Virus record (IMG/VR): IMGVR_UViG_3300032322_001107
Coordinates: 1 to 64,000 of that record
DNA: 64,000 bases
From: a virus
Reading direction: 5' to 3' (one strand)
Shown here one piece after another: positions 11,193-64,000 of this stretch. Positions within the stretch are counted from its first letter, which is position 1; every line of letters starts with the position of its first letter. A model generated the notes under the pieces. That model was not told the origin of the DNA. It was given only the letters and a program-made list of their open reading frames with translations, and did not search any database. Position numbers and translations under genes: made by a program.

Positions 11193-11416
11193 AACCACAC
11201 CCAGACGATAGTATCTTCAAGGTCAAAGATTTTATCAACGAACTCTCAAGGGTTCAGGATTCTTACTTTGAGTCATTGTGCTTTGAGCTTGGTTTAGATG
11301 GAGAAGATAAACTCCGAGATTATCTATTCGACTATATCTATAACGAAACGGAGATGATAACCTTCGGAGAATATCTAGACGAACTTGGTCAGGGAGATCT
11401 TTGGGACGGGCTGTGA
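11189..11416 (+). CDS. Acidic hypothetical protein
   Basis: 75 aa with an ATGA overlap to the upstream gene. Confidence 0.6.
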   Translation: MKPHPDDSIFKVKDFINELSRVQDSYFESLCFELGLDGEDKLRDYLFDYIYNETEMITFGEYLDELGQGDLWDGL

Positions 11417-14069: not shown

Positions 14070-15032
14070 ATGGCTGAACCAATTCAATTTCCGCAGTCTG
14101 GACAAGGAGCCATATTAACTCCTTCAACCTTGGTTTCTCCCGATTTGCCAGAAGAGTGGGGTGGGCGACCCGCAGGAACATCCCGTAGAGCCATCCGAAT
14201 GCAAGAAGATTGGGATAAGCGCAGAGCCGCAATGCTAGAAGAGCAGCAAACCTCACAACAGATGGATGCACAGCGCAGGCAATTAGCTCTTCAAGAGCGG
14301 GATCAATTTATTCAAGATTCAGAATACAATCGCAAACTAAAAGAATACGAAGCGGAACAAGATATCAGGGGGCAGGCAGAAATGGAATCAAACAACATCC
14401 TTGATTGGCTAGGAGGCCGCGCTGTTGATAATCAAGGAAATCCCATTGCCAAACCAGACCCCAAAACTCCAGAATTTCAAACTGAATTTCTTCGCAGGCT
14501 TTCTGAAAATCCCCTTGGTGCAGAATTGAATAAGGGAATTGTAGATCAATACATGGGCGCTAACAAAACCTATTTGGACGCCCAGCAAACCAAGCAAAGA
14601 GAAGAAGCCGCACTTCTGCGTGAAGAGAGGATGCTTGGTCGCCAATTGGCAGCAGAAGAAAGGGCCAAGGGCAGACAAATTGAAGCAGAAGAGAGGGCGC
14701 AAACACGCGCAGAAAAAAAAGCGGAAGAGTCACAAATAATTGGAATAGATAAGGATATTCGCAGAGAAGAGCTTGCATTGGAAGATGTTGCGGCAAATCT
14801 TGGATTACAACGAGATCAGTCTGGAAGATTTAATATTGGCGGGCTTTCTGATACTCAGAAAAAAACATTTAGGGCGGCTGAGAATCGCGTTAGACTTTTG
14901 GAGCAAGACAGGGCACAATTGCAGGGATTTATGTTTGATACAGAGGCAGATGCCCAAGCGGCAATTGAGGCCAAAACAGTTCCCAAGGGAGCTATTATAT
15001 TTATTAATGGCAAAAAAGCTATCAACCGATAA
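14070..15032 (+). CDS. Probable internal virion (ejection) protein, coiled-coil
   Basis: E/Q/R-rich helical protein whose stop overlaps the next start (TAATG). Confidence 0.55.
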   Translation: MAEPIQFPQSGQGAILTPSTLVSPDLPEEWGGRPAGTSRRAIRMQEDWDKRRAAMLEEQQTSQQMDAQRRQLALQERDQFIQDSEYNRKLKEYEAEQDIRGQAEMESNNILDWLGGRAVDNQGNPIAKPDPKTPEFQTEFLRRLSENPLGAELNKGIVDQYMGANKTYLDAQQTKQREEAALLREERMLGRQLAAEERAKGRQIEAEERAQTRAEKKAEESQIIGIDKDIRREELALEDVAANLGLQRDQSGRFNIGGLSDTQKKTFRAAENRVRLLEQDRAQLQGFMFDTEADAQAAIEAKTVPKGAIIFINGKKAINR

Positions 15033-43588: not shown

Positions 43589-43942
43589 ATGAACAGACAA
43601 GAAGCAATACAACTACAGATCGATGAAATCATGGATAGTTTTGACTTCCAATCAGCCATGAGGGTATTGGAGGTCTACAAGTCCATGGAGCGGGGTTATC
43701 CCAAAGACTGGTTCCTAGACGATGAGCCGTTTGAGCCTGCTATTCGGGCAGCAGCCCGCGAGTGCATGAAGGCGGCGGTCAAGCATAGTTATGCTGGTCA
43801 TAGCTATTTTGAGTCCCGCTTTGAAGAGGGAGAAGACGATGACGGCCCATGGGTCAGGATTTTCTTCAACTTCGGAGATCATAGCCACAATGACGGAGTA
43901 TCTTATGAAAAAACTGCTACTACTACCACTGTTACTGAGTAA
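43589..43942 (+). CDS. Hypothetical phage protein
   Basis: Contains IDEIMDSFDF; 117 aa. Confidence 0.6.
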   Translation: MNRQEAIQLQIDEIMDSFDFQSAMRVLEVYKSMERGYPKDWFLDDEPFEPAIRAAARECMKAAVKHSYAGHSYFESRFEEGEDDDGPWVRIFFNFGDHSHNDGVSYEKTATTTTVTE

Positions 43943-44186
43943 TACCCTTGCCCAAGATGGATCGTTTAATGGAACGGTTTATGACTTGGATTCGGGGCGG
44001 ATACAGGTCATTAGTGGGTCTGTGGATATCAAGCCAAAGGAGGATACATATCTTTCTACCCTTCGTCGCATCAATGCGGAGTTGGCGGAATCAAACGCTC
44101 GTATGAGTGCGGAGATTACAGCCAACAATCAACTTTATGAACTGCGCGAGCAGACAAGGCTCCTGCGTAAAATTGCCGACCAATGA
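43905..44186 (+). CDS. Signal-peptide protein with coiled-coil C-terminus
   Basis: Begins MKKLLLLPLLLSNTLA-Q. Confidence 0.55.
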   Translation: MKKLLLLPLLLSNTLAQDGSFNGTVYDLDSGRIQVISGSVDIKPKEDTYLSTLRRINAELAESNARMSAEITANNQLYELREQTRLLRKIADQ

Positions 44187-44830
44187 GTAACTATCTCAAC
44201 GTCAATATCCCCACCTTCTTTGCTTTTGTAGATGAGGGATTCTTTTACGATCTTGAACCATGTGTCAGCAGGGAGAGACAACTAGTCGAGGTATTTGCCT
44301 TCACCTCCATCCCCCAACGGTGTGGGTTGTTTAGCGTGATGACAGAATACGGAAGCCAGCATGCCCGTGTCCCGATCCATTACCTTCATACTGATGAGAC
44401 TGGAGGCACATCTTACCCCTTGGACTGGATACAACTCTGGGACTCCATGAGCTACTATTGTAGTGTTACGATGCATGATTATTGCAAAAACCGTGCAGCA
44501 AACATCATGTTGAAGAACAAAATCTTTGAAAAAGGGAAATACATGTTCACGCTGGACTGGTGTTTCGGCCCCCACTATACCTCTGGCTACGGCGAGATGG
44601 CGGCTGGGCATAAGTGCGGTCATGTGTTTGCGGGCGATGGGCAATACTTTATCCAGCCCAACAATCGTGTGCTGTGGATGGACGGGGGATCGTTCATTGC
44701 CAAGAAGTTTCCACAAAAGCCCGATTGGAAGGTATTTAGCCAAGAATTTAGCTGCGAAAGCACAGGAAGCCGCTGGGTTAGCGAAAGCGAGGAGGAGCTA
44801 TGGTTTTACGACTTCAAAGAGCAGGGATAG
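44183..44830 (+). CDS. Conserved aquatic-phage hypothetical protein
   Basis: YLNVNIP, QLWD, HKCGH and QPNNR motifs. Confidence 0.7.
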   Translation: MSNYLNVNIPTFFAFVDEGFFYDLEPCVSRERQLVEVFAFTSIPQRCGLFSVMTEYGSQHARVPIHYLHTDETGGTSYPLDWIQLWDSMSYYCSVTMHDYCKNRAANIMLKNKIFEKGKYMFTLDWCFGPHYTSGYGEMAAGHKCGHVFAGDGQYFIQPNNRVLWMDGGSFIAKKFPQKPDWKVFSQEFSCESTGSRWVSESEEELWFYDFKEQG

Positions 44831-49519: not shown

Positions 49520-50122
49520 TTACTCGCTTTGAGCCTGCGTAGCCTTCCAGCAAAAGGCGGGGAAGCTCAAGCCTTCTCCACCCTGTGTGTCAACTGGAAG
49601 ATGGACTGAGACCGCATTGTAGCATCCACAAATTCCACAGGCTTTAAGCTGCTGGTCATAAGATGTTGTTTTTGCTCCCGCAATATGGGGTAGCATTCCA
49701 GCAATTCCCTTGCATCCCCAACAGCCAGAAGTGGCAATTTGATTTGGACAGGCCGCGCAAATCTTGGCCCTGCGCTCCGCCTCCTCTTGATCGACTAGCT
49801 GGAACTTGTTGTCTTTGGCAAAGTGATACATTGCCTTGACCCAACGGACAATTTGAGAAAATCCCAAAGTTTGTTTTTCTTGGGTGCATGGCACACAGTT
49901 TTCATTGCCAGCCATTCTGTCACAAAGATTGTGTTCTATTTGTGATACAAGATCCACGGGCGGGGTAATGTTTTTGGAGATCAAAAGCTTCTCGCAATTC
50001 GCAACCATATCATGCCAATCGCCTCCGCGAACGGGATCGCCAACAATCGGACAATTCACCCACCATCCTTGTGGTGGAACATTCGATTTTCTCTCGTAGC
50101 AAAATTTCGGAGCCTCACTCAT
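49520..50122 (-). CDS. Cys-rich putative zinc-binding protein
   Basis: RAKICAACP, CWGC, CGICGC and C-terminal FCW. Confidence 0.6.
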   Translation of the reverse strand: MSEAPKFCYERKSNVPPQGWWVNCPIVGDPVRGGDWHDMVANCEKLLISKNITPPVDLVSQIEHNLCDRMAGNENCVPCTQEKQTLGFSQIVRWVKAMYHFAKDNKFQLVDQEEAERRAKICAACPNQIATSGCWGCKGIAGMLPHIAGAKTTSYDQQLKACGICGCYNAVSVHLPVDTQGGEGLSFPAFCWKATQAQSE

Positions 50123-50885
50123 TGACAACTAACTCCGCTTCATAAGTGTTGTTTTCGGGAATTTTCATGGATTCCAGCTTGGTGGCAATGTTAATCTGAA
50201 TTGCATTCTGCTGATTATTGCCCTCAGAAAAGTTGATGGCAGCAGCTTCTGCCAACTGCTTGATGTTCCGCATCATGCCAAGAGCTTCCATGCCATCTAG
50301 GTCTTGCGCGGCATCCGCAGCCTTCACCAGAACCTTTCCAGTCAAAAATTTAATCGATTTCTTCATGGTTTCCAGCGATGCCGTGATTTCCGACATAACA
50401 GAAGGAACTCCGTCATCTTCCCAAGGGGCGGGAGATTGCTCGTTGACCAGACGTTCGCGGCATTGAATCCAGCGTTGGGTGTCCCGCCACAAACAAACAG
50501 TAGATTCGCTTACCTTCAGTTCCTCGGCAATATCCCGCAGGGTGCGTCCCGAACAATACATGGAGAATCCCTTAATACACTCAAGCCTACGTTTTTTATC
50601 CATCTCCTCCATTCTGGCGGGAGGAGCAACTAGAGCCACGGGACGCTCTTTATCCCAAGGGTAGAGGTTTTCTGCTTCGGGATTTTCCTGCCAGATCTTG
50701 GCATAGTCATCCCATTTCTCGCTATAGATCATCTTTTCAAGAGTGGGTTTGTGCTTAGTGTCCAAAGCCTTCATCACCTCTGGCAAATCCCTACCAGCAG
50801 CATAGAGCCGAAATGCATTCTGTTTTTTAATACGGTTTTCGGGCGCGTCCCAATCCCGCTCTCCGCTCTTGCGCTTTTTCTCCAT
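50115..50885 (-). CDS. Putative terminase small subunit (duplicated HTH)
   Basis: Two AF.LY..G..L.EIA..L-type HTH units and a C-terminal QINI. Adjacent to TerL but divergently oriented. Confidence 0.5.
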   Translation of the reverse strand: MEKKRKSGERDWDAPENRIKKQNAFRLYAAGRDLPEVMKALDTKHKPTLEKMIYSEKWDDYAKIWQENPEAENLYPWDKERPVALVAPPARMEEMDKKRRLECIKGFSMYCSGRTLRDIAEELKVSESTVCLWRDTQRWIQCRERLVNEQSPAPWEDDGVPSVMSEITASLETMKKSIKFLTGKVLVKAADAAQDLDGMEALGMMRNIKQLAEAAAINFSEGNNQQNAIQINIATKLESMKIPENNTYEAELVVNE

Positions 50886-50913
50886 CCAGATTAGTTTAGT
50901 ATAAATTTCATAA

Positions 50914-52755
50914 ATGGCAACAGTTGATCAAGGAATAGAGAAATACGGGAGGTTGTGGTTACCCAAAGACGGACAGGCGATTACGCCAATCCGCATCGAG
51001 ATGGATGCCTTCTTGCAGGGACTTACTCCCGAAGAGGGAGGACTCGGAAAGGCTCGCCATTATCGTAATATTGTCTCTGCTATATGGCCCACATTCCAGT
51101 GGCACAGGTGGGCAGAACTCAGCGCACAAGCATTCTGCAACCAAATTTACGAGGTAGATGAGGCTACGGGCAATCGATTCGTCCGAAGCGTGACAGGTCT
51201 CGCTGGCGGAACAGACTCTGGCAAATCCTACGGGATGGCGGCGTTTGCGCTGGTCAATTGGTTCTGCGACCCCATCAATACGATGACAATTGTTGTCTCT
51301 ACGTCCAAGATTGACGCCAAACAGCGTATCTGGGCGGCACTGGTCAAGATGTATCGTGAAGCCCGAAACATGGGGTTGGCATCTGGCAGGCTCATTGAGT
51401 CCATGGATATCATCAAGCTCTCAGACGAAGAGGGGGCCGTGATCGATCCCGAAACAGGAGTTAGTGATGCCTCATCTATTATGCTTTTGGCGGCGGGTGA
51501 TGAATATAAAGATGACGCCCAGAAACGACTTCAGGGTAAGAAGAATCGTCGCATCGTGTTAATCGTGGATGAGCTTCAGGATTGCGCGAATTCTGTAATT
51601 ACCCAAGCTATTTGGGGATTTAAGGGCGCACAGGAGCTTTACATTGTAGGCGCGGGAAACCCTGCCTCCATCTTCGATCCCCACGGGAAGTTTTGCGAAC
51701 CCATCAAGGGATGGATGAGCGTGGATGAGGAAACTCCGAACTGGAAGATACGGGTAGCGGGAATTGAAGGTGTTTGTATTCGATTTGACTCTGAAAAAGA
51801 CAACCCAAACCAGCAGTCCTTCGATGCTGGTAAGGGACTGCGCTATCCGTTTCTTCCAAAACCCAATGATGTGGCGTTGGCCCGAAAAGAACTCGGAGAA
51901 CTTAATCCCCAGTATTGGAGAAAGTTTCGGGGCTTCTGGCCTCCTGCTGATGCTGATGACTCCACGATTGTCTCTGATATCCTATTGGCTCGCCATGGTG
52001 CGCTAGACAAACCGATCTGGGATGGAACCCCGAAAGATATTGCTGGCATTGACCCAAGCTATACTGAGGGCGGTGATAGATTTGTGTTTACCCACCTTAA
52101 GTATGGAAAATTAATCAGTGGAAAATGGGCGATAGCTGTTGAGAAACAGTATGTCCTCAACCGAAGGGCGGGGTCTCAAGAAGACTTCCAATACGAAATG
52201 ATCCAACAAATCCACGATCTCTCTCTTAAGTTGGGAATTCCAAATCAATGGATGGGCGTAGACGCCTCGGCTGGTGGTATCTTTTGGTCGATTGGAGAAA
52301 GGGAACTGCTAAAGGGTTGGCACGCAGTAAGTTTTGCAGGAGCGGCTTCAGATCTTCCAGTAAGCGCCCAATACGCCATGAGGAACGAAGCCACGGGAAA
52401 ACCCCAAGTAGGCAAGGAATTGTTCCACAACATGGCGTCAGAACTTTGTTTCGCCGCCCGATACTTCTTGGAGTGTGAACAACTCAAGGGAATCACCCCA
52501 GATCTGGCATGGGAGATGACCCAGAGAAAGTATGTGCGCCGAACCCGCAAGATTATCATTGAATCCAAGACCGACATGAAAAAACGGATTGGAAAGTCTC
52601 CCGACTTATTTGACTCATTTGCAGTCGGATTGTTTGTCGCCCGCAAGGTATTTGGAGCCATGGCTGGTAGTGAGGCGATTGAGGAAAAGAAACGGCTCAA
52701 TAAAGAAACGTTCAAGAAGCTTAAACAAGCCTTGACTATAAGGAAGAATTGGTAG
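50914..52755 (+). CDS. terL: Terminase large subunit
   Basis: GGTDSGKS (Walker A), LIVDE (Walker B), GAGNP, nuclease GIDPS and SPDLFDS. Confidence 0.92.
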   Translation: MATVDQGIEKYGRLWLPKDGQAITPIRIEMDAFLQGLTPEEGGLGKARHYRNIVSAIWPTFQWHRWAELSAQAFCNQIYEVDEATGNRFVRSVTGLAGGTDSGKSYGMAAFALVNWFCDPINTMTIVVSTSKIDAKQRIWAALVKMYREARNMGLASGRLIESMDIIKLSDEEGAVIDPETGVSDASSIMLLAAGDEYKDDAQKRLQGKKNRRIVLIVDELQDCANSVITQAIWGFKGAQELYIVGAGNPASIFDPHGKFCEPIKGWMSVDEETPNWKIRVAGIEGVCIRFDSEKDNPNQQSFDAGKGLRYPFLPKPNDVALARKELGELNPQYWRKFRGFWPPADADDSTIVSDILLARHGALDKPIWDGTPKDIAGIDPSYTEGGDRFVFTHLKYGKLISGKWAIAVEKQYVLNRRAGSQEDFQYEMIQQIHDLSLKLGIPNQWMGVDASAGGIFWSIGERELLKGWHAVSFAGAASDLPVSAQYAMRNEATGKPQVGKELFHNMASELCFAARYFLECEQLKGITPDLAWEMTQRKYVRRTRKIIIESKTDMKKRIGKSPDLFDSFAVGLFVARKVFGAMAGSEAIEEKKRLNKETFKKLKQALTIRKNW

Positions 52756-52771
52756 ATTCTATTTGCCATTT

Positions 52772-53134
52772 ATGGCTCAACTACCGATTGCCGAAGCTGA
52801 TATCTGCATATTTCAGGGGGCAACTTTCAATCAAACATTGTTTTATGAGACGGGCGAACCCTCGGCTCCAGTTAATCTTGCGGGGTTTACGGCTAAGATG
52901 CACATTCGGTCAAAGCCCGAATCCAAAGCACTAATTCTTGAATTGTCCACAAGTAATGGTAGAATCGTATTGAATGAAGCTACGGGATCTATTAGACTGT
53001 TTATTTCGGCATCTGACACGGCATCGCTCTCGGTCTGTGATAAAGCCGTATATGACCTTGAGCTATACAACGGGGCCGTCACAACCCGAATCCTGCAAGG
53101 CAATGTTATCATTTCACCAGAGGTTACACGATAA
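52772..53134 (+). CDS. Small beta-sandwich virion adaptor protein (paralogue of 55898)
   Basis: IFQGATF...PVNLAGFTAKMHIR...YDLEL...ILQG...EVTR. Confidence 0.65.
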   Translation: MAQLPIAEADICIFQGATFNQTLFYETGEPSAPVNLAGFTAKMHIRSKPESKALILELSTSNGRIVLNEATGSIRLFISASDTASLSVCDKAVYDLELYNGAVTTRILQGNVIISPEVTR

Positions 53135-53458
53135 ATGAGCAAGATTTGTATCCCCATTCCTTCTTCAAGTGTTATAGGTGTATCCTCAACCCCGATTTCC
53201 ACACCAAGTGTTAATATCCTTCGTGTCGAACCATCAATTACAGGACTTGATGGCGGAGGAACAACCAATCTAGACAGCCTTAATACAGTCAGTGGAACCT
53301 ATGCGGTTGGTATTGTTATTTTTCTTATTCTCGATGGGCTTCCTGCCATCTATCAACTGACCAATGGCACCGATGCCCAAAATCTTCCTTTTGTAGTCCG
53401 ACCCAACGACTATGATAGCCAAACAGGAACCAAGCGGGTTTGGAAGCGACTAATGTAA
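53135..53458 (+). CDS. Small virion-associated protein
   Basis: ITGLDGGGTTNLD...VRPNDY...W; located in the fibre cluster. Confidence 0.55.
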   Translation: MSKICIPIPSSSVIGVSSTPISTPSVNILRVEPSITGLDGGGTTNLDSLNTVSGTYAVGIVIFLILDGLPAIYQLTNGTDAQNLPFVVRPNDYDSQTGTKRVWKRLM

Positions 53459-53460
53459 CA

Positions 53461-55884
53461 ATGAAATATATTCTCTCACTTATTATCAGTGGAGCCTTGG
53501 TTGTTTCGGGCTTCGGGCAAACTCGGAACGTTCTTGTCGGCACCAATAATGCCGTAGTCCAACCGACTAATTTTTGGAGCGCGGACGCTTCCAACGCTCG
53601 CACGGGACTAGGATTGGGAACCTCCGCTACCAATCCCGCATCCGCATTTCAACCTTCTTCTGCCACGCTTTCCAACTTGGCTGCGAGTAATGGCGGAAAC
53701 TTAACAAATCTTCAGTCCGCAAATTTAGTTGGCATTATTCCAGCGTCCAACATTCCGTCAACCACGTTAACCAATATTTCTGGAACTCTTTCGATTGCTT
53801 CTGGCGGAACGGGAGCCACCAACGCGGGTGGGGCAAGGACGAATTTGGGGTTGGGGTGGACGGCTCTTGCCAATACCAATAGTGCAACATCGCTTATGGG
53901 GCTTGTTGTTGATACTGGAGCAACAAACATTTTTTATGTAACTGGGGCTGGGAGTCCATCAAATTCTATTATTTTTACCAATCCCGTTGAATTGTCTGGA
54001 GGGGCACATGGATTGAGAATTGCTGATGGAACAAATGAAGCTTGGGATTTTCCAAATGACGCAGCGGCTGAGTTTTATTATTCGTTTGGGTTTTATGGGG
54101 CCAATGCTTCAAATAACGCAGCAACAGCAAGAACAAACCTTGGATTGGGAGCCACATGGCTCACAAACACTAATGCTCCAGTATTTGTGAATACCAATGG
54201 AGAAGTGGTGAGTCCGACCAACTTTTGGCAGGTAGCCCCGATATCCACAACTGTCCAATACCAAACAAATGTTACTGGAACATCAACAAATGCTGCAACA
54301 AACAGTCGCAATCTATTTCTGTTCAGTCTTTCTCCTTCGGTGTCGGGAATTACCAATACGGTGACATTGCCCACAAATCCCGCAACCACATTTGAAGGAG
54401 ATAGAGCTACTGTTACCCATCTTGCCCAGACAACCAACGCAGTGACGGCTATCAGGCAATTGGGCGCAGCAACCAATATTATTACGCTCAACCAGCTTGA
54501 TGAAACGGTTCTATTGATGTATCGCAGCGGAGCATGGATATTGGCCGACAACATTTCCTACATTGAGCCTATCTATTTTTCTGGCACTAACGCAGCAGCC
54601 AATGCGGCGGCAAGCAGAACCAATTTGGGGCTAGGAGCGACTTGGCTCACGAACACCAACGTCACAAATTTCCGCACGGCGATTGGGTTGGGGGAAGAGG
54701 ACTCTCCGCAATTTGATGATATAAGCTCATCTTCGGCAAATATTTCGCAAATTTCTGCCAATGCTATAGGCATGAATGGTGCAATTTCTTGGACTGGAAC
54801 AAACGCAACAGCAAACGCCGCCACAACCCGCACCAATTTGGGATTGGGATCAACAAATAATGTTATTTTTTTATCTTTGATAACGGCAAATACCAATGGA
54901 TCACTCATTAATTTGGATCCATCTGAAACGCTTGGGCAGTCCTTGACTGGTATTGGAAGGACTTCAAATTCAATTTATTTTACTTATGCAGCATTTACAT
55001 ATCTAGAAGCCAACACCAATGGGTGGACAGTTCATAGGCCGTTTTCATTTTCGTCAGACGGGATAAGGCTTGGAACATTAACAAACTTGCAACTTGCTTC
55101 TACTAATATTGTTACATTCGCTGGCATCACCAACAACGGCGACATCACAATCAACAGCACCACGGCCAGCAACGGCCTGCTTTACATCCGCCGCACCAAC
55201 AACGAACCCTTCCTCGGCCTTGCCAACCTCATCGCGTCGAACAATACGACGATCAGCAACGAAACTTTATTTCGCGTAGGCGTTTCAGAGGCGACCAACA
55301 AAGCCGCGCAATTCGGCTTCCGTAGCACCAACACCAACGGCAACGGCGTGGCGGTGTTCAGCGTGTTTGGTTACAACGCGCTGATGATGATCGGCCCCTC
55401 CGATCCCGAAGCAGGAACTAACCCCATCGAAGCAACGGTGTATTCCGTTAATCCAACAAACAAGGTGATGACTCTTATTAGAACCAACACTGGAGCTACG
55501 ATGTTCCATCGTCCTATTGAGTTTGAAAATACCACCAACCAAGCTGTGACTCGCACCAACCTTGGCCTTGGCCAAACCAATAGCGTCACATTTTCTTCGC
55601 TAACTCTTTCAAGTGATCTAACTTTTGGCAGTGGAGATAACATTGTTCTGTCCACAACAAATGGGACGAAGATTGGAACAGCAACAAACCAGCTTCTTGG
55701 CTTTTATAATCAAACTCCTATTGTGCAACCATCCACAACAGGAGTTACCACCAACGGATTTACTCAGGGAAGCGGAAACAATGTCCACCCAAATAGCACA
55801 TTTACTGGTGGCATAGGAACAAATGCATACACAATTTCGGATATTGTAGCGCATTTGAAATCGCTTGGGCTGATCGCTCCTTAA
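53461..55884 (+). CDS. Fibre-like protein with N-terminal signal peptide, Thr-Asn rich
   Basis: Begins MKYILSLIISGALVVSGFG-Q. Has repeated RTNLGLG units, IASGGTGATNAGGAR, and C-terminal IVAHLKSLGLI. Confidence 0.7.
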   Translation: MKYILSLIISGALVVSGFGQTRNVLVGTNNAVVQPTNFWSADASNARTGLGLGTSATNPASAFQPSSATLSNLAASNGGNLTNLQSANLVGIIPASNIPSTTLTNISGTLSIASGGTGATNAGGARTNLGLGWTALANTNSATSLMGLVVDTGATNIFYVTGAGSPSNSIIFTNPVELSGGAHGLRIADGTNEAWDFPNDAAAEFYYSFGFYGANASNNAATARTNLGLGATWLTNTNAPVFVNTNGEVVSPTNFWQVAPISTTVQYQTNVTGTSTNAATNSRNLFLFSLSPSVSGITNTVTLPTNPATTFEGDRATVTHLAQTTNAVTAIRQLGAATNIITLNQLDETVLLMYRSGAWILADNISYIEPIYFSGTNAAANAAASRTNLGLGATWLTNTNVTNFRTAIGLGEEDSPQFDDISSSSANISQISANAIGMNGAISWTGTNATANAATTRTNLGLGSTNNVIFLSLITANTNGSLINLDPSETLGQSLTGIGRTSNSIYFTYAAFTYLEANTNGWTVHRPFSFSSDGIRLGTLTNLQLASTNIVTFAGITNNGDITINSTTASNGLLYIRRTNNEPFLGLANLIASNNTTISNETLFRVGVSEATNKAAQFGFRSTNTNGNGVAVFSVFGYNALMMIGPSDPEAGTNPIEATVYSVNPTNKVMTLIRTNTGATMFHRPIEFENTTNQAVTRTNLGLGQTNSVTFSSLTLSSDLTFGSGDNIVLSTTNGTKIGTATNQLLGFYNQTPIVQPSTTGVTTNGFTQGSGNNVHPNSTFTGGIGTNAYTISDIVAHLKSLGLIAP

Positions 55885-55897
55885 ACACATTTTATAA

Positions 55898-56266
55898 ATG
55901 ACCAACTACTGGAGACTTGAGAGGGATATTGATATCGTCCAAGGAAAAACTTGGACGGCGAAGTTTCGTTATCTGACAAAATCCTGCAAGGGCAAGTCAA
56001 ATGTCCCAGTCAATCTTTCGGGCTACGGGGCGAACATGGTCATTCGGGAGTGCGCCAAGGATAGTGCTACTTTGCTCACATTGACCGCAGGAAGCGGGAT
56101 TACGCTAGGATCTGATGGGACTATCGAAATAGTAATGACGGCCACGCAGGCGTCAAATCTGACGGCGGGAGACAATGTCTACGAAATCGAACTAAGCCAA
56201 GGCTACACCTATATCGCATTTGCCACAGGTAAAGCCAAAGTCTACGAGGAGATTGCCCGAAGCTAA
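55898..56266 (+). CDS. Small beta-sandwich virion adaptor protein (paralogue of 52772)
   Basis: IVQGKTW...[14 protein letters not shown]...YEIEL...EIAR. Confidence 0.65.
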
Positions 56267-56267
56267 A

Positions 56268-59200
56268 ATGGAAGTCATCGAAGTAGTAGAGAGGGAAGTT
56301 GAGGTCATTGAGTTGATCGAACGTGGCCCCGCTGGCCCTACAGGCCCGCAGCCCGACATCAATTACACTGTAGTCTCGTCAGCCCGCACCCTAGAGGCAG
56401 CAGATTTAATCGCAGCAGACACCTCTGGAGGGGCGTTTACTCTTACTCTTCCACTTAATCCTAGTAATGGAGATGCGGTAGACATCTTTGATTTCTCGGA
56501 AACCTTTGATACGAACAATCTGACCATCGCCCGAAACGGACAAAGAATCGAATCTATCGAAGAAGATCTTATCTGTAACGTCGAAGGAGCCTACTTCACC
56601 TTAATCTACACTGGAGCAACAAGAGGCTGGCAAGTATTACCACGATATGGAACTTCGGGCGGTGGAGGCGGGGAATCTGTTCTTACAAATACAGGAGATA
56701 TGCTTTATCGGGGTGTCGGTGTCAACGCCCGCCTCCCTATCGGAACCGCAGGACAGGTTCTGAAAGTAAACAGCGGAGCCACGGCCCCCGAATGGGGAAC
56801 CATCTCCACAGCACCCAGTGGCCCCGCAGGAGGAGACCTCACTGGAACTTACCCCAATCCCACTTTAACCACTTCAGGGGTAAGCGCGGGAACCTATACC
56901 AAGGTCACCGTTGATGCCAAGGGGCGGGCGACTGTCGGAGCTTCCGCCACAAAGTCTGATGTTGGACTCGGTAATGTCGATGACACAAGTGATGCCTCAA
57001 AACCCGTCTCAACAGCTACCCAGACTGCGCTAAATCTAAAGGCTAATCTAGACTCCCCCGCGCTCACTGGAACCCCGACAGCACCTACCGCTGCTGCTGG
57101 AACTGACACCACACAAGTCGCCACTACGGCATTTACGCTGGCAAATCGCGGAGACCGATACCTCACAACCAGCACATCTTCTCATTCGCTTACTACAGGT
57201 TCCAAAACATTTACTGTACAGTCGGGACTTAGTTATACTCCAACACAGGACGTTACCATTGTATACGATGCAGCCCGTCATATGCATGCTATTGTTACCA
57301 GCTATTCTGGAACATCATTGGTAGTTAATGTCGATACCGTAGAAGGTAGTGGCGGGCCATTTACAGCTTGGACAATCAATGTGGGTGGGCTTTTGACAGC
57401 ACAGGGGGCACTACTTGAGGTTAACAATCTCAGTGATGTCAGCAACCCCGCAACCGCATTAACCAATATCGGTGGTGTACCAACAAGCCGATCTATCAGC
57501 GCGGGAACGGGGCTTACTGGCGGTGGAGATCTTACGGCTAATAGAACGCTCACAGTTAGCTATGGATCTACAGCAGGAACTGCCTGCCAAGGCAATGATG
57601 CGCGGTTGAGTGATGCGAGGACGCCTGCGGCTCACGCCGCCAGTCACAGAGCGGCGAAGCCCGCCGTTGCCGCCAGATACACAGGCATTGGCGATAACGA
57701 AACCTTTTCCGAAGAAGTAGTAATTATAGCAAACACCGCAGGGACGGCGGGCAATAGCATCACGCTGACCTTTGATGGCGTGGATGATGTGGATACCGTG
57801 TTGGCCGCTTGGAACGCAGCCAATCCGTCAAACCAAGCCACATTAGACAGTGGCGATGGCGAACAAGTCCCCGCCGATGGCGACTTTCTTACGCTTTCGG
57901 GCGGAGTTGCGGCGATTGTTGGCGGCAGTGATCCGTTTGCCAACATCAACCAAGACCTTGGCACGACCGACCAAGTAAATTTTTCCACACTTACCCTAAC
58001 CGCTCCCCTCAATGGCGAAGTCATTCGTATCAATGGGGTTGATCCATTGGGCAGTGACACAGGCTTCGCCGTCTACAACACCACAGGCAACCAATCCAAC
58101 TCGTTCTATTTTAACAAAAACAACTCCTTTATCGGCATTGGCGTAGGAGCGAGCCGAAATTACATTCAGTCCTCGCAGCCAGTGGATGTTGGCGCGGAGC
58201 TTGCTGTGGCGGGGCCAATAAACATCACGGGGGCGAGCGCATCTACTCACAAGGCAACCACTCGCACCAACCTTGGCGCAGCCGCCTCTGGCTCCATCAC
58301 CTCCAGCGGCCTCACGCAATCCACCGCAAGAATTTTAGGCCGCACGACAGCCAGCACAGGCTCCATCGAGGAGATCCAAATCGGCTCGGGCCTTTCGCTT
58401 TCGGCGGGGGAGTTGTCTTCCACAGTCAGCGCGGGCATCCCTGCAACCCTCCTCGACGCCAAAGGCGATCTCATCGTGGCCTCGGCGGCGGATACGGCGG
58501 CGCGGCTGGCGGTGGGCGGGACGAATGGTCATGTGCTGACGGTGGACTCGACGGAGACGCTGGGGGTGAAGTGGGCGGCGGCGGCAGGAGGCGTCTCTGG
58601 CGTCGATAGCACCACCGACGATGTCTTCAGCGTATCGGGCAGCAACCTCGTTGCCGACGATGGCGGGCTAATCGACTCGGCCAATCCTTTCGTTCAGTGG
58701 AACGACACATCGGGCAAGCTCGTCTACGCCAACCCGCTCAGTCGGCCATCTGGCGCTTTCTATGTCGGGCTGGCTCCGACTACCACGGCGCTCGGAACGC
58801 GGGCGATCAACATTCAAAGCAACAGGGCGGGCGCGACAAGCGTTGCCGCCAACACTGACGCCATTGTCATTGGAGACGCCGCCACCACAGGCTCAAGCTC
58901 GGTTGCCATCGGCCTCCGCGCATCGGCGGGAGGAAGTAGTGTGGCAATCGGACTTGATGCCACCACTTTTAGCAATCCCAGTGGTGCAATCGCCATCGGT
59001 CGCTCTGCAAGCGCAAGTGGAACAAGTTGGCCTATAGCCCTTAACGGAACCGCTTCCGAATCTGACGCTATTGCCATCAACGGCACGGCCTCAAATCTTA
59101 ACAGCGTAGCCATCGGGCGCGGAATTACAGCGAACTTGATGGGCCAATTTTTCACGCGCTCCTTTGGCGTGAATTATTGGGGCGGGCAAACAACCAACAA

Positions 59201-59546
59201 CACGGCGACCATATTAAATCTGGATGCAGGCGCAGGAGGAACCGCTCGCTTCACCATCGCCGCCAACACCGCCTTGGCCGTGGACATCACCCTTGTAGCG
59301 CGGCGATCTGGAACACAAGACAAGTGGCTGGTTGCCCGCCGTTTTTTGGGCATCCGTCGAGACGCAACGAACACCGCGCTGATCGGGTCAGTTGGAAACT
59401 ACGGACTTGATCAAAGCGCAGGATCTCCGACTTGGACATTTGCGTTGACCGCCGACACGACCAACAATGCGCTTCAGTTGCAAGTTACGGGGGAGACAGG
59501 CGAGACCGTAGAATGGAGAGCAACTGCATTTTATAGAGTTGTCTAA
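56268..59546 (+). CDS. Long mosaic tail fibre
   Basis: Modules [60 protein letters not shown] and YadA-like AIG repeats. Confidence 0.85.
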
Positions 59547-59548
59547 TT

Positions 59549-60082
59549 ATGAACCCCAAAGAAATCTACAACGTATTACTTACCGAGCCGAAAGTTATCG
59601 ACGGCAAAACGTGGCACAACCTCTCTTACCAGATAACCCGCGACGAAGCGGGCAAGATCGAAGTCACCGAGTTTGGCTGGCCGACTAAGCTGACGATTTA
59701 CGAGCAGGACGGCCCCGAACTGGATGCGCTGGACGAGGCAACGGTGAAAGCCGCCGTTGAAGCCGCGCTGCCTGTGGATGAGGGTTATGTGATTCCGCCG
59801 CCGCCGACTCCGTATGTTGAGGCTTTCACGCCCGAAGCATGGGTGACGCGGCACCTTACATCCCTGCAAATTCTTTCCCTGCAACGTCTGGAAATGGCCC
59901 TGCTTCAAGCGAGCTTGCCGCTCGGCACGAACATGGCCGCGCTCAAGGGTTGGCTGGAGGCCATGATGTTGGCGAGCGTTGACCCGACTCCACGCACATT
60001 TCCTGCCCCGCCGTGTTCCTACGAGGTTGCGTCAGCGGAGGCGGTGGCTGGGTTGCAATCAGGTCAAAATCCCGAAACATAA
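59549..60082 (+). CDS. Putative tail fibre assembly protein
   Basis: Directly follows the fibre gene and shares its GC-rich codon style. Confidence 0.5.
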   Translation: MNPKEIYNVLLTEPKVIDGKTWHNLSYQITRDEAGKIEVTEFGWPTKLTIYEQDGPELDALDEATVKAAVEAALPVDEGYVIPPPPTPYVEAFTPEAWVTRHLTSLQILSLQRLEMALLQASLPLGTNMAALKGWLEAMMLASVDPTPRTFPAPPCSYEVASAEAVAGLQSGQNPET

Positions 60083-60086
60083 TCTT

Positions 60087-62330
60087 ATGGCAAACCTCTC
60101 TTCATTCTATCCCCAGCCAGTAGTACCCAATGCTATAGAAGTTACTGCTTCTGGGTCTACAACTGCAAGAACTCTATCAACGAGGTTTGCCGACATAGTA
60201 AATGTTAAAGATTTTGGTGCGGTGGGTGACGGGGTTTCCGATGATTGGTTAGCTATTCAGAGGGCAATTGCCGCAGCGGCAGATGTACCAAACGCCGCAA
60301 CATTAACAATGCCAGCAGCACTGGGTGTTTCAGATCCAATGTCTGTCAACGCCTTTGGCATATGGATTCCTAAACTTTTTTATTTTGGTGTTTCTAGACG
60401 TATTGTCTATTTCCCTTCTGGCCAATACGCAATTTCTAGGCCACTTGTTGCCAGCGGAGAACAAATTCATTTATTGGGATACAGTGGACGCATGTCTCGC
60501 ATTAATGTGAGTAAAAACGCAGCAACATCCGCTGGTCTTGCAACAATGTTTAATGGTGTTGAACCGCTTAACGAATGGGTTTATAGAGAATTAGTTGCCG
60601 TTGATGGCACAGAGCCAGTTGGATTTTGGTCTCTGTGGCCAGATTACGGTCATGGAAATCGCATTGAAGGTCTTGGAGTTGGTTTAACAGAACTTGATGA
60701 AAACAATCAAACGACAATCCGACCATTTGATACAGTGTCAGATGTTCTGGCATATTTGCCGTTTACAGAAGGCCCTCCGCCATTTGCAAAAGTTTCTGGA
60801 ACACAGGGAACAAACACTCTAACTATTAATACAGAAATTCGGTGCTGGGTTGGAATGAAAATAAAACCCAGAAATCATGCCACAACTTACACTGTTGCAT
60901 CTTTTTCTGTTGGTTCAAATAGCGTAACAATAACAACAGTCGAAACAGTTACTAGCAATATCGTTAATGAAATGGCGCTTCGTGGAAAATCGGCAGCAAA
61001 TGGAATTCTTTTAAATGGCGGAGAAAATATGGCAATTATTAGGTGCTTTGCCGATGGATTTTATTATGGTTCTGGAATTTCGCTATTAGGAGGTTCCCCA
61101 GCAGCAATTATTGATAATTGCATGGTTAATTCTAATAAAGTTGGTTACGAAATAGAATCTGGGCCATCCATACTTATAAAACCTTCTGGTGATAACAATC
61201 AAACATTTGTTCGCGCTGGATTTAAATCTCTAGCCACACTTTATATTGAAGGAATAAAAATGGAGAATTTTGGATCACCTCCATTTTTTGGTTTTGAAAC
61301 TGGAATAAAAGAGATTTTTCAACTTGGAAGTTATGGTGGTCAAGGGCGACCATCCAGCATGAAAATTGTTGGAGGATCTATCAATATTAATGTAAGCCCC
61401 AATCTTGAAGACTCCGTTATTTATGCTGAATACGCTACGGTTTACCCAGCAAATATACAAACCAGCGGACTAAACATGCAAAACCAATGCTCGATTATTC
61501 ATCAAAGGCGCAACCTTTTGAATAATGATATTTTGAAACGCATTGGAAGGTCTGATTGGCAAAGCACACAGCATGCAGAACGTTATGGTGGTAAATCTGA
61601 ACGAATGAGCGATGGATTGGTAGATTGGTATGTTTATGGAGATAGGCGCAATGCTGTTTTTGACTTGATAGATAATCGCGGAGGAATAGTGGCAGATTCT
61701 GGATCTGGAAGACCTTCAGGTAATGCAACATTTGAAAGAGACGGACAAACAGTAACGTTTACTCAGGCAAATCACGGACTACAAGTTGGAAATCAAATTT
61801 TTGTGGCACAGTATATTTCTACCGACCCACCAAATACATTTTTTACAGCAACGGGAAGCGCATCTGATGGAAGCTTTACTGGATCGTTATTTGTTAAATC
61901 TGTAAACGGAAACGATTTTACATGCACCGTAGCCAATAGCGGTCCAGATGAAGGAACCGTAAAGCTTATTTATGGAAAATATTGGGATTTTCACAGTTTT
62001 TACGACAATAGGCATATTGTTCAAATACCAAGCGATTTGGGTTCTCCGAACATTAATAGGGAAGTTTTTGTTTTTAAAGATTTACAAAATAGAAATCTGT
62101 CTGGATTGCGAGTTGCTACAGCTACTGAAGGTGATTGGTGGGCAAGTAAATCTCTAAACATAGGCGGAACCATCGATAGCCCCTCATCCCGAATCTTGAC
62201 TGGCACAGGCGCACCTAGTGCGCCCGCACCCAATGGATCTATCTATCTCAGAACAGATGGAGATGCTTCCAGCACAGTATATGTGAGAGCGGGAGATCAA
62301 TGGAGGCCACTTGGAGCTTATGAACCTTAA
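60087..62330 (+). CDS. Tailspike / depolymerase (pectate lyase 3-like beta-helix)
   Basis: VNVKDFGAVGDGVSDD, VYFPSGQY and C-terminal GTGAPSAPAPNGSIYLRTDG. Confidence 0.8.
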   Translation: MANLSSFYPQPVVPNAIEVTASGSTTARTLSTRFADIVNVKDFGAVGDGVSDDWLAIQRAIAAAADVPNAATLTMPAALGVSDPMSVNAFGIWIPKLFYFGVSRRIVYFPSGQYAISRPLVASGEQIHLLGYSGRMSRINVSKNAATSAGLATMFNGVEPLNEWVYRELVAVDGTEPVGFWSLWPDYGHGNRIEGLGVGLTELDENNQTTIRPFDTVSDVLAYLPFTEGPPPFAKVSGTQGTNTLTINTEIRCWVGMKIKPRNHATTYTVASFSVGSNSVTITTVETVTSNIVNEMALRGKSAANGILLNGGENMAIIRCFADGFYYGSGISLLGGSPAAIIDNCMVNSNKVGYEIESGPSILIKPSGDNNQTFVRAGFKSLATLYIEGIKMENFGSPPFFGFETGIKEIFQLGSYGGQGRPSSMKIVGGSININVSPNLEDSVIYAEYATVYPANIQTSGLNMQNQCSIIHQRRNLLNNDILKRIGRSDWQSTQHAERYGGKSERMSDGLVDWYVYGDRRNAVFDLIDNRGGIVADSGSGRPSGNATFERDGQTVTFTQANHGLQVGNQIFVAQYISTDPPNTFFTATGSASDGSFTGSLFVKSVNGNDFTCTVANSGPDEGTVKLIYGKYWDFHSFYDNRHIVQIPSDLGSPNINREVFVFKDLQNRNLSGLRVATATEGDWWASKSLNIGGTIDSPSSRILTGTGAPSAPAPNGSIYLRTDGDASSTVYVRAGDQWRPLGAYEP

Positions 62331-62886
62331 AAATACACTTCTAGCATTGCTGGCGATGTCTTCCTCGCTCTGGGGACAGACGATCACCACAAATACTAAT
62401 GATCTAACCACCCCTTGGTCTAATTCGTTTTCGGGATTTCAAGGTATAACCAACACAGGTCGGGCGTTTCGCGTCACGGCATCCAATCTCACGACCAACA
62501 TCACAGTGGCTCTTTCCGACTCTACAAACTGGCAAGTATCGACGAACAACACCGCCTTCACCAATACCCTGTCAATGGCGAGTAATTCCTCCAACGCTCT
62601 CTTATGGGTAAGGATGAGCGGGTCAAATGTCGGAACATTCACTAATATCATCAGCCTGACCAGCACTGGAACGAACGGAACAAATACCAACAACGTAACA
62701 AACACTACCACAATTACGGGAACGGTGGTCGCTTCGTTGGCTTCGGTCATGTATGATAAGGCCACAGCACTCATTGTCCGTCCGACCAATTTGGGACTGA
62801 ATACCAACATTACTTTCGTTGACGCCGCAACCAACACCAATACAGTATCGATCTCCAATGGTATTATTACTGGCTGGACACAATAG
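62320..62886 (+). CDS. Signal-peptide, Thr-Asn-rich Ig-like protein
   Basis: Begins MNLKNTLLALLAMSSSLWG-Q. Has 16 TN dipeptides in 188 aa and C-terminal ISNGIITG. Confidence 0.65.
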   Translation: MNLKNTLLALLAMSSSLWGQTITTNTNDLTTPWSNSFSGFQGITNTGRAFRVTASNLTTNITVALSDSTNWQVSTNNTAFTNTLSMASNSSNALLWVRMSGSNVGTFTNIISLTSTGTNGTNTNNVTNTTTITGTVVASLASVMYDKATALIVRPTNLGLNTNITFVDAATNTNTVSISNGIITGWTQ

Positions 62887-62913
62887 ACTTAACACCTTAC
62901 ACTTTCTACTTTA

Positions 62914-64000
62914 ATGGCAACAGGCAACGCAGAACTGGAAAATCTACCAGAGAGTGGTAGTCCACCGAAAAAACGCATCAAATCATCTGATAACCTTGTG
63001 GCAATCGCTAACAAGTATATCGAACAAGATGAGGATGCGGCGTATCTTAGGGCGCGGGCGCAAGCCCTAGTCAATGGCGAAGCCCCCTACGATGCCGAAG
63101 AATTGAAGAGCAAAGGACTAACCCATGTGGTCAATGCCAACTTCGGGGAGGCCAATGCCATCATGGAAGCAGCCTTGGCCCCGTATATTGAACTCCAAAA
63201 TGGGGTTCCCCGCATCGCCAACGTCATCATGGAATCTTATCAGGGGGACTCCAATGAAGACTCCGAAATCATCTCTGAGGAGTTTGATTGGATGCTTAAG
63301 GAGTGGAGTGATCATGCCTACAATATGCAACTCCTTTCCCGCGAGTTTGTGGGTGACGGGGTCGGGGTGGCTATGTGGCCCGATGAAAGGTCAATCTTCT
63401 GGGAGCCTTGCGGACTTAAAGATTTCAAAGTAGCCCGTGACACCAAAGTATCAGATGAGTCCATTGAAGTTGCTATCGTCCAACGCTCCATGAGCGTGAG
63501 TGAACTTTACCGCTATATCCGCAATCCCAAAGCCGCGAAAGAACTTGGCTGGAATCTCAACGCAGTTAAGCAGGCAATTTGGAAGGCTTCGACCAAGCGC
63601 GACCAGTGGAAGAACTATACCGCTCACTGGGAAGACTTTGAGCGCGAAATCAAGGAGAATGACCTCTACGCTGGGGAATCGGCCTACCACCGCGCCCAAC
63701 TAATCTACGGCTACAACCGCGAATTCGATGGTAAGTTTACACAGCTTATCGGATCTCGCGATTCTTCGGATTTCCTCTACGAGCGTTATAGCCGCTATGG
63801 AAATGTGAACCAATGCTTCGTCATCTTTACCTACGGAGTCGGACAGGGAACCTTCCATACGATTCGCGGACTCAAGCAGAAGATCTACAACCAAATCCAG
63901 ATTTCCAATAGGGTTCTTTGCCAGTCAGCCCAAGCCGCCATCACTTCTGGACTTATTCAGTTGCAGGGGGACGCCGAAGCCATCCAAGACTTTCAATATA
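62914..64000 (+). CDS. Probable portal protein, 3'-truncated by window end (absent from ORF track)
   Basis: Long frame from ATG 62914 (MATGNAELENLPESGSPPKKRIK...). FVGDGVGVAMW resembles podoviral portal motifs, and the position in the structural module fits. Confidence 0.65.
   Translation, partial: MATGNAELENLPESGSPPKKRIKSSDNLVAIANKYIEQDEDAAYLRARAQALVNGEAPYDAEELKSKGLTHVVNANFGEANAIMEAALAPYIELQNGVPRIANVIMESYQGDSNEDSEIISEEFDWMLKEWSDHAYNMQLLSREFVGDGVGVAMWPDERSIFWEPCGLKDFKVARDTKVSDESIEVAIVQRSMSVSELYRYIRNPKAAKELGWNLNAVKQAIWKASTKRDQWKNYTAHWEDFEREIKENDLYAGESAYHRAQLIYGYNREFDGKFTQLIGSRDSSDFLYERYSRYGNVNQCFVIFTYGVGQGTFHTIRGLKQKIYNQIQISNRVLCQSAQAAITSGLIQLQGDAEAIQDFQY

Follow-up and report, generated by a model that had tools for sequence, protein, structure and literature searches.

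Two genes, A and B, in the tail block of the virus record IMGVR_UViG_3300032322_001107 encode proteins which are strongly enriched in Thr-Asn (TN) pairs and which start with what are, by every sequence criterion applied, type-I signal peptides. The window, that is, the whole stretch of DNA analysed here, comprises bases 1-64000 of this 72,849-bp record, which has direct terminal repeats and is rated complete. Sec export of both proteins is well supported by their predicted signals. Our preferred explanation is that A and B are tail-fibre-derived proteins of receptor-binding type which are exported by the Sec system and finally attached to virions at lysis; for this whole chain we put the probability at roughly 0.4, and virion attachment is its weakest step. 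The parts of the two genes are as follows.

53461..53517, + strand: signal peptide of A, 19 aa, consisting of MK, a hydrophobic core and SGFG; predicted cleavage before Gln20
53518..55884, + strand: mature A, TN-rich and of fibre type, with a conserved start (QTRNVLVGTNNAVVQPTNFW...) and a variable remainder
62320..62376, + strand: signal peptide of B, 19 aa, consisting of MNLK, a hydrophobic core and SLWG; predicted cleavage before Gln20
62377..62886, + strand: mature B, TN-rich and all-beta, with one domain of ~110 aa, a ..IVRPTNL.. junction and a short tail

Gene A runs from an ATG at 53461 to 55884 (807 aa) and starts 2 nt past the stop codon of a 107-aa gene, and gene B (ATG at 62320 to 62886, 188 aa) overlaps the end of the gene for spike D by 11 nt. 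The N-termini are MKYILSLIISGALVVSGFG in A and MNLKNTLLALLAMSSSLWG in B, each followed by Gln, and AlphaFold models both starts as helices (residues 2-15 in A, 3-13 in B). Signals were judged by a rule-based scan, which weak signals escape and in which all related sequences are counted. The sequence-only reading had assigned to both proteins signal peptides that expose Gln, and the scan finds the complete grammar in A as well as in B. It is also conserved: a word-indexed search yielded 537 relatives of A, and among the matches listed 116 of 120 homologues keep Lys2, the lack of acidic residues, the hydrophobic core (mean hydropathy 2.3-3.4 over positions 4-15 in the family) and Gln at +1. Position -3 is Gly, Ala or Ser and position -1 Gly, Ser, Ala or Thr in 116/116 aligned signals. 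The four exceptions are three 5'-truncated gene calls and one protein with a different signal, then Gln. The 19-residue signal of A occurs in 62 versions (0.84 bit per column), whereas the next 26 residues, the mature start, occur in 36 versions (0.27 bit per column). Such a drifting signal in front of a fixed mature start is the pattern of selection for hydrophobicity only, followed by selection for exact sequence. The B family drifts in a similar way and shows Gly followed by Gln in 12/12 rows, two of which are 5'-truncated calls; the B signal has Leu at -3 and Gly at -1. As the 79 related loci are close kin, with terminase identities of 90-98%, the 116 A homologues are not independent. Independence comes from the differing signal bodies in the A, B and small-protein families and from a wider cassette family (see below).

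A third signal-plus-Gln protein of the phage is encoded at 43905-44186 on the + strand (93 aa, MKKLLLLPLLLSNTLA followed by Gln). It contains no TN pair and has no PHROG match, a homologous open reading frame (ORF) lies in locus L019 at 152-550, and its stop codon overlaps the start of a gene at 44183-44830 which matches phrog_3704 ('ferredoxin', E 1.7e-39).

The residue exposed by the predicted cleavage points to the host. According to PMC5837995, most signal peptidase I substrates of Bacteroidetes expose Gln, which is cyclised to pyroglutamate (the "Q-rule"); Gln at +1 averages 71% across 334 Bacteroidetes species, Chlamydiae and Spirochaetes typically have shares below 20% and most Chlorobi stay under 9%, and the exceptions are Ignavibacterium, a few Chlorobi and a few cyanobacteria. 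All three signal-bearing proteins of the phage (A, B and the product of 43905-44186) follow this rule, and the host is therefore probably a member of the Bacteroidota. A loose Shine-Dalgarno match precedes only 8 of 32 genes, and none was seen at the terminase, the probable portal and the head genes, a scarcity which we take to fit Bacteroidota. The word TANNTTTG, which we take to be the Bacteroidetes -7 promoter word, was uninformative (40 matches vs 39.9 expected). Seven relatives from other phages, among the 149 listed in the database search described below, have signals which end in Ala followed by Glu or Asp and not by Gln, and this fits a cleavage context imposed by the host. The residue after the signal (Gln vs Glu/Asp) may hint at the host phylum of uncultured phages.

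The second property of A and B is the TN excess, for which the expectation was derived from each protein's own composition with 2000 shuffles per protein. A contains 50 TN pairs vs 14.0 +/- 3.2 expected (3.6-fold, z 11.3) and B 16 vs 5.7 +/- 2.0 (2.8-fold, z 5.2), a level reached by 0/2000 shuffles in either case. Fibre C, a signal-less neighbour used as control, has 8 vs 8.7 expected (z -0.25), and spike D has 1 vs 3.8, counted on the longer ORF 59979-62330. Our recount thus reproduces the earlier figures of 50, 16 and 8, and the shuffles confirm an excess beyond what the Thr and Asn contents explain. TN is the most over-represented dipeptide in both proteins; Thr precedes 50 of the 95 Asn residues in A and 16 of the 27 in B, and the reverse dipeptide NT occurs 11 times in A, without enrichment. 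Since eight different codon pairs spell TN, the excess is a feature of the protein and not a DNA word. The neighbours of the TN pairs in A vary, and RTNLG repeats hold 5 of the 50. Of the two repeats ascribed to A from the sequence alone, RTNLGLG and GGTGAT, the core RTNLG of the former occurs five times in A and once in C, and GGTGAT is present as one copy; the motif V.PTN[FL] is indeed common to both proteins, twice in A and once in B. A is poor in charge (K+R+D+E = 63/807). Neither A nor B contains Cys, so that the lipobox Cys at +1 is lacking and the two are no lipoproteins. Among the 101 ORFs of the 72.8-kb genome, a signal-like start and a TN excess occur together in A and B only.

The comparison of multiple loci shows that the excess goes with the signal. 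Greedy non-overlapping calling in the 79 loci gave 982 ORFs of at least 80 aa, among which 82 signal-plus-Gln proteins contain 3110 TN pairs vs 839 expected (3.71-fold), seven proteins with other signal-like starts 1 vs 1.0, and the other 893 ORFs 859 vs 844. The contrast between signal-bearing and signal-less phage proteins, a comparison proposed in the sequence-only reading, exists (3.71-fold vs 1.02-fold). Four TN-rich proteins fall into the no-signal class, namely two B homologues missed by the rule, one A copy cut by the end of its locus and one fibre with an internal signal. Moreover, the excess is confined to the part after the signal: in 219 proteins with such a signal segment, 7182 TN pairs vs 2068 expected (3.47-fold) lie after the cleavage site, while 40 upstream parts of at least 60 aa contain 45 vs 69 (0.65-fold). 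In the fibre ORFs of loci L042 and L064 which carry an internal signal, 19/19 TN pairs lie past residue 202 and 10/10 past residue 234, respectively. The seven proteins with Ala before Glu or Asp show 84 TN pairs vs 22.1 expected (3.8-fold). A single polypeptide thus shifts its dipeptide statistics exactly at the predicted signal peptidase site, whatever the residue at +1, and a high TN density may help annotators to recognise which part of a fibre gene is exported. TN positions are also better conserved than the other positions of the alignments (mean identity 0.81 vs 0.55-0.59 in A, 0.94 vs 0.80-0.86 in B), and in the confident domain of the AlphaFold model of A the pairs lie at the starts and ends of beta-strands. 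The role of TN looks structural.

The sequence-only reading had suggested that the TN motifs are modified, for example glycosylated, after export. The pairs are numerous and conserved and have a preferred direction (50 TN vs 11 NT in A), as sites of glycosylation or of another covalent modification might be, and the phage has two sugar-related genes, which nothing links to A or B:

1389-1817, + strand: sugar-pathway-like gene (PF14667, E 1.1e-9)
1814-2848, + strand: 344-aa gene adjoining it, no match
11401-12198, + strand: glycosyltransferase family 2-like gene (E 2.8e-5)

The O-glycosylation motif of Bacteroidetes is D(S/T)(A/I/L/V/M/T), and other sequons are N-x-S/T and D/E-x-N-x-S/T. None of them is enriched: N-x-S/T occurs 17 times in A vs 22.6 expected and 8 times in B vs 8.5, the O-glycosylation motif 0 times in A vs 2.1 and once in B vs 0.7, and D/E-x-N-x-S/T in neither protein. 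TN itself forms no part of the Bacteroidetes motif. The equal TN excess (3.8-fold) behind non-Gln signals, which probably belong to other host phyla, shows that it is not tied to a Bacteroidota-specific system, and the conserved pairs flank beta-strands in the only confident domain. The dipeptide Asp-Ser/Thr falls 38% short of the composition-based expectation in the exported parts (470 vs 764) but not in the pre-signal parts (115 vs 114), as would be expected if proteins exposed to the periplasm avoided the host motif. The full O-glycosylation motif likewise seemed depleted in the exported parts of the 219 proteins (174 vs 360 by simple shuffle), but this depletion vanishes once dipeptide frequencies are kept (174 vs 183), and as the sequences are related we do not count motif avoidance as evidence. 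Covalent modification at TN is unlikely, and we give a glycosylation-site explanation of the excess only a very small chance; this part of the sequence-only reading was not supported by the comparison.

The arrangement seen in A and B recurs as a cassette consisting of a signal, Gln, the sequence ..V..TNG.VV.PTN.. and TN-rich beta domains. This cassette is a mobile module, and the gene directly upstream of it always encodes a signal-less fibre or spike or else a small tail protein (for A, the 107-aa protein). A phmmer search of 1.84 billion cluster representatives with the L042 part as query returned 180 proteins at E <=0.001, 149 of them newly listed. Among these 149, the signal with Gln is at the N-terminus in 45 and internal in 41, where it lies 30 to ~490 residues into the protein and is preceded by fibre starts of several unrelated kinds; 18 contain a hydrophobic stretch that does not follow the Gln rule (including the seven clear signals ending in Ala before Glu or Asp), and 45 have no signal by rule, at least five of which show signals or truncated signals on inspection. 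The cassette with signal and Gln is thus present in at least 86 protein clusters. Internal and N-terminal copies follow one grammar, with a median of 17 residues for the uncharged run before the cleavage site, a length typical of signal peptides and not of transmembrane segments, and the internal copies have Ala or Ser at -1 in 41/41 and a net charge of +1.7 before and -0.3 after the run.

Among the related loci, fused ORFs of this kind occupy the second fibre slot (L042 5129-6664, L064 5031-6329 and, in L005/L006, L005 10924-13662). They begin with a C-type fibre start with collagen-like repeats and a conserved fibre end (..KSPNG.RWR.T...G..), which are followed, with no stop codon between, by a basic residue, a hydrophobic run, A-x-A and Gln, and then by ..V..TNG.VV.PTN.. 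and a TN-rich domain. A separate protein with the whole signal has no possible start in L042, where ATG, GTG and TTG are missing ahead of the hydrophobic run and translation from the start codons within it would truncate the signal; in L064 a GTG is present. With the ATG of A 2 nt past the stop of the 107-aa gene and the ATG of B overlapping the end of spike D, the phage of the window has what is, on the predicted gene boundaries, a split version of the fused plan. All long distal domains encoded from terminase to portal in L042 and L064 follow a signal. The same two loci encode a pre-portal 129-aa signal-plus-Gln protein without TN pairs (L042 6669-7058 and L064 6334-6723; MKKIILIAILA...YA or ...HA, then Gln). 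A Pfam search with nine fused and one stand-alone cassette proteins gave nothing above threshold, and two cassette proteins had no match in 50,697 phage records.

These internal copies speak for another explanation, in which the stretch is no export signal: the fibre would fold in the cytoplasm, the hydrophobic stretch would have a structural role in it, for instance as a trimeric hydrophobic neck, as a docking helix or as an element inserted into a membrane during infection, and the TN richness would only be a lineage trait of this family of fibre modules. Between 30 and ~490 ordinary fibre residues precede the stretch within the ORF in 41 clusters, L042 lacks a usable start codon before it, and a simple covalent fibre needs no new assembly route; furthermore, all carriers have one N-terminal module, so that common descent could explain the TN trait. 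A neck or helix would, however, give no reason for the basic residue, the uncharged run with a median of 17, the small residue at -3, Ala or Ser at -1 in 41/41 and the following Gln, nor for a switch from Gln to Glu or Asp together with a different signal body. It would also leave unexplained that the stretch drifts freely between fixed flanks and that the TN enrichment begins exactly at the predicted cleavage site. We consider this explanation unlikely.

The fibre character of A is seen in its domains. Two PHROG families of tail fibres match weakly (E 1e-4 and 4.9e-4), and the protein atlas gives hints of phage-fibre clusters (score 0.86), which are no more than leads. The identity of A across loci is 34-92%, compared to 90-98% for the terminase, so that A varies as a specificity determinant would. 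Its AlphaFold model has a mean pLDDT of 54 with only residues 260-369 confident (pLDDT >90), a poor overall model being expected for the monomer of a fibre. Two modules of A could be assigned:

54241..54567, + strand: XD1-like beta-sandwich domain of A, residues 261-369, from structure matches
55618..55878, + strand: C-terminal tip module of A, residues 720-806, common to a signal-less fibre-like protein of cyanophage KBS-S-2A

The first matches residues 78-179 of CBA120 TSP4 (Z 9.7, rmsd 2.6, 94 aligned), a tailspike of Acinetobacter phage Solidus (Z 9.3), a chain in the baseplate reconstruction of Klebsiella phage KP1 (Z 8.7) and the glycan-binding domains of CpaA (6o38, Z 8.5) and StcE (4dny, Z 7.2). 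According to PMC8825819, TSP4 residues 78-179 are the XD1 domain, with the fold of the XD1 domains of T4 gp9/gp10, and CpaA and StcE are named as its neighbours. XD2/XD3 docking domains were not detected. The tip module was found by tblastn in the KBS-S-2A genome (E 3e-4, 47.5% identity) and aligns pairwise (45% over 87 aa, E 9e-12) to the end of a 280-aa structural-module protein, which starts like an ordinary fibre and lacks a signal. Opposite the four TN pairs of the A tip, this protein has TT, TS, a stretch without TN and a gap, and no TN pair was seen on reading its whole sequence.

B has no family match, its model is unreliable (pLDDT 49.8) and too poor for a fold search, and the protein-atlas hints of Ig/BACON-like folds, with scores <0.8, are no more than leads. 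Its ~110-aa domain is duplicated in the relative P0121, and the relative P0300 keeps the first 158 aa of B, followed by a different C-terminal part with repeated ..TNGVV.NPTNF.. units. Such a unit also opens mature A and recurs before its XD1-like domain, so that A and B draw on one set of modules. P0300, with its signal at the start, was the only fused B form found among longer proteins, which is weak evidence of absence. A homology between the 107-aa gene and the N-terminal domain of one group of fused proteins, suspected by eye, was not supported (BLASTP E 0.2-0.3, hhalign probability 1.5%) and was dropped.

Export and fibre modules could also be combined without a place in the virion: A and B may be exported, fibre-derived binders which act from the periplasm on the envelope of the infected cell, possibly by masking or blocking the receptor (superinfection exclusion) or by keeping progeny off debris. 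The export grammar is equally strong under this alternative, and the cassette, which directly follows a gene for a fibre or spike or is fused to it, shows the extreme variability of a specificity determinant; tight linkage would keep binder and fibre matched. Export moreover separates the protein from the site where virions are built, and Porphyromonas phages encode Q-rule proteins thought to alter the cell surface (PMC10367356). On the other side, A is built throughout like a virion fibre: a constant N-terminus is combined with an XD1-like domain, with RTNLG repeats and with a tip shared with a structural-module protein of a cyanophage, and an LtfC-like gene of its own lies upstream. From terminase to portal, L042 and L064 encode distal fibre domains only behind signals, and under this alternative such phages would lack fibre tips. 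Since no lipobox and no type IX C-terminal domain was found (A and B match no Pfam family at E up to 0.1, although a divergent domain is possible), these proteins are not expected to reach the cell surface. We regard action on the envelope, in any of the roles named, as possible but doubtful.

Attachment to the virion is preferred because of the virion-fibre build of A, its own LtfC-like gene and the lack of a signal-less distal fibre domain in L042 and L064. In the proposed chain, the Sec system of the host would export A and B, signal peptidase I would cut before Gln, and the Gln would be cyclised as in other exported proteins of Bacteroidetes. The TN-rich module would fold in the periplasm, with the TN pairs serving as conserved elements at beta-strand ends and turns, and would wait there until lysis mixes the compartments. 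The conserved mature N-terminus could then dock onto the virion built in the cytoplasm, with the LtfC-like or 107-aa proteins as putative partners of A and the spike or fibre tip as those of B and of the fused forms, and docking would complete a branched receptor-binding complex. The boldest form of this view, which we hold possible but not likely, is a two-compartment assembly: a host signal peptide, placed at the head of a fibre gene or within a fibre polyprotein, would direct the distal, TN-rich receptor-binding module through the Sec channel, host signal peptidase would free it, and after maturing in the periplasm it would be joined to the particle built in the cytoplasm only once lysis opens the inner membrane. 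When three copies of the mature start of A, taken as residues 20-140, were modelled together with the LtfC-like protein, the complex scored 0.02; this prediction was run without controls and has no bearing either way.

Several points weigh against this chain. Virions of tailed phages assemble in the cytoplasm, so that for an exported fibre lysis would be the earliest opportunity to join them, and we know of no precedent for such a step. Export, cleavage and location in the virion are predictions from sequence. The XD1 fold is also that of the glycan-binding domains in the secreted bacterial proteases StcE and CpaA, and its presence in A is therefore no proof of virion membership. If the fused ORFs were cleaved, the upstream fibre would retain a hydrophobic tail, embedded in the membrane, at its C-terminus, which is awkward for attachment to virions and for action on the envelope alike. 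Two kinds of signal-plus-Gln protein, the product of 43905-44186 and the 129-aa pre-portal protein of L042/L064, are not TN-rich, so that export alone produces no TN excess. Conversely, the A-like protein P0161 (693 aa) is TN-rich (53 vs 15.7 expected) and listed as signal-less, although its start, MALIANSSG followed by Q, looks like the end of a signal cut by the gene call. The link between signal and TN rests on few lineages (A, B, the small proteins and the cassette family found by phmmer), which share one N-terminal module and may have a single origin, and as the loci are related, homologue counts are not independent events. The host is inferred, since no relative was found in the 50,697 phage records except for the cyanophage tip; none was found in species-representative bacterial and archaeal genomes either, by two scans with one or two short patterns each, which is weak evidence of absence.

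The tail fibres of tailed phages are regarded as proteins of the cytoplasm. Among exported phage proteins, Llp of T5 is a small receptor-blocking lipoprotein encoded next to the receptor-binding gene of that phage, and an envelope role of A and B would resemble its action in exclusion; A and B are likewise linked to receptor-binding genes but lack Cys and consist of fibre modules. The coat proteins pIII and pVIII of filamentous phages are virion proteins with Sec signal peptides processed by the host signal peptidase. Filamentous phages, however, assemble at the membrane and are extruded, whereas the phage studied here has a 72.8-kb genome with terminase, portal and tail genes. Internal signal peptides are known from the polyproteins of enveloped animal viruses, and there, as predicted for the fused fibre ORFs, an internal signal peptidase site would split a cytoplasmic from an exported part.

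The antiholin RI of T4 has a cleavable signal peptide and acts in the periplasm (PMC8385771); it is likewise a signal-bearing protein of a tailed phage, but a small lysis regulator and not of fibre type. Porphyromonas prophages carry Q-rule proteins of unknown function, as stated in PMC10367356. Like these and other Q-rule substrates (PMC5837995), the three proteins of our phage have a type-I signal and then Gln; the Porphyromonas proteins are small and prophage-borne, whereas the rule extends here to large proteins of fibre type from the tail module of a lytic-type phage and to signals inside ORFs. A shares with CBA120 TSP4, the XD domains of T4 gp9/gp10 and G7C gp66 (PMC8825819) a constant N-terminus, an XD1-type sandwich and variable distal parts, and in the branched complexes of CBA120, T4 and G7C, as in this phage, several fibres or spikes are encoded in one tail block. 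Unlike A and B, those proteins are signal-less and assemble in the cytoplasm. The absence of signal peptides has even been used as a mark of phage origin for diversified binding proteins (PMC6199706). In the literature searched, which covered few subscription journals, we found no description of exported or signal-bearing tail fibres or of internal signal peptides in phages. Each component is known (Sec signals, the Q-rule, XD1 domains, modular fibres), and that literature does not describe their combination. A large family of uncultured phages has host-type signal peptides on proteins built like fibres, sometimes in the middle of an ORF. If export is real, either the adsorption apparatus is partly matured outside the cytoplasm, which would be a new assembly route, or fibre modules have been recruited as periplasmic agents linked to receptor-binding genes. 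Two-compartment assembly would, if true, be a new mechanism.

The genes around A and B lie in a block from terminase to portal that also contains the other tail-fibre genes:

50914-52755: large terminase (phrog_2, E 2.2e-14)
52763..53134, + strand: LtfC-like small beta-sandwich gene 1, likely start ATG at 52772, the first gene after the large terminase
53135..53458, + strand: 107-aa gene, no Pfam or PHROG match, position conserved in related loci
55898..56266, + strand: LtfC-like small gene 2, before fibre C (phrog_1084, E 7.2e-17; phrog_3304, E 1.4e-4)
56268..59546, + strand: signal-less fibre C (1092 aa), matching ten PHROG families, five of them tail families (phrog_1197, E 2.4e-20)
59549..60082, + strand: 177-aa gene after fibre C, no family match, position conserved
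60087..62330, + strand: signal-less tailspike D of pectate-lyase type, directly upstream of B (PF12708, E 1.1e-13; tailspike PHROGs)
62914 onwards: probable portal gene, named by its conservation and its position before the head genes, no family match

LtfC-like gene 1 matches phrog_1084 (function unknown, E 6.4e-23) and phrog_3304 ('L-shaped tail fiber protein assembly', E 9.7e-9), and its score against Pfam LtfC, 17.2 bits, is below the cut-off of 27. It is kept at its position in related loci with 67-99% identity, and full-length copies of LtfC-like gene 2 are 77-97% identical (62% in the end-truncated copy of L066). Across the 79 related loci, many of them short fragments, the gene order is conserved as far as each locus extends: a probable small terminase (by position only), the large terminase, the LtfC-like gene, the 107-aa gene and A, followed by the second LtfC-like gene, C, the 177-aa gene, a variable spike, a variable small signal-bearing gene and the portal. 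The G+C content within 50001-64000 ranges from 0.41 in spike D up to 0.58 in distal fibre C, and such swings in the tail block fit module exchange.

The window also encodes a DnaB helicase, a DnaG primase and an exonuclease, and no tRNA genes were found in it. Searches of the 50,697 phage records with the terminase (E limit 1e-5) and a portal fragment (E limit 1e-3) gave no match, and the DnaB helicase matched 1285 of these records at ~35% identity, without a host signal. The phage is a member of an uncultured group. An ORF of 3077 aa at 15032-24265 on the + strand has neither a Pfam nor a PHROG match; by its size and position it could be a giant virion-carried protein of the N4-like type, which no test supports. 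At 70324-71245, outside the window, three successive small ORFs of 94, 94 and 124 aa, each with one strongly hydrophobic stretch ~22-40 residues in, may form a lysis cassette.

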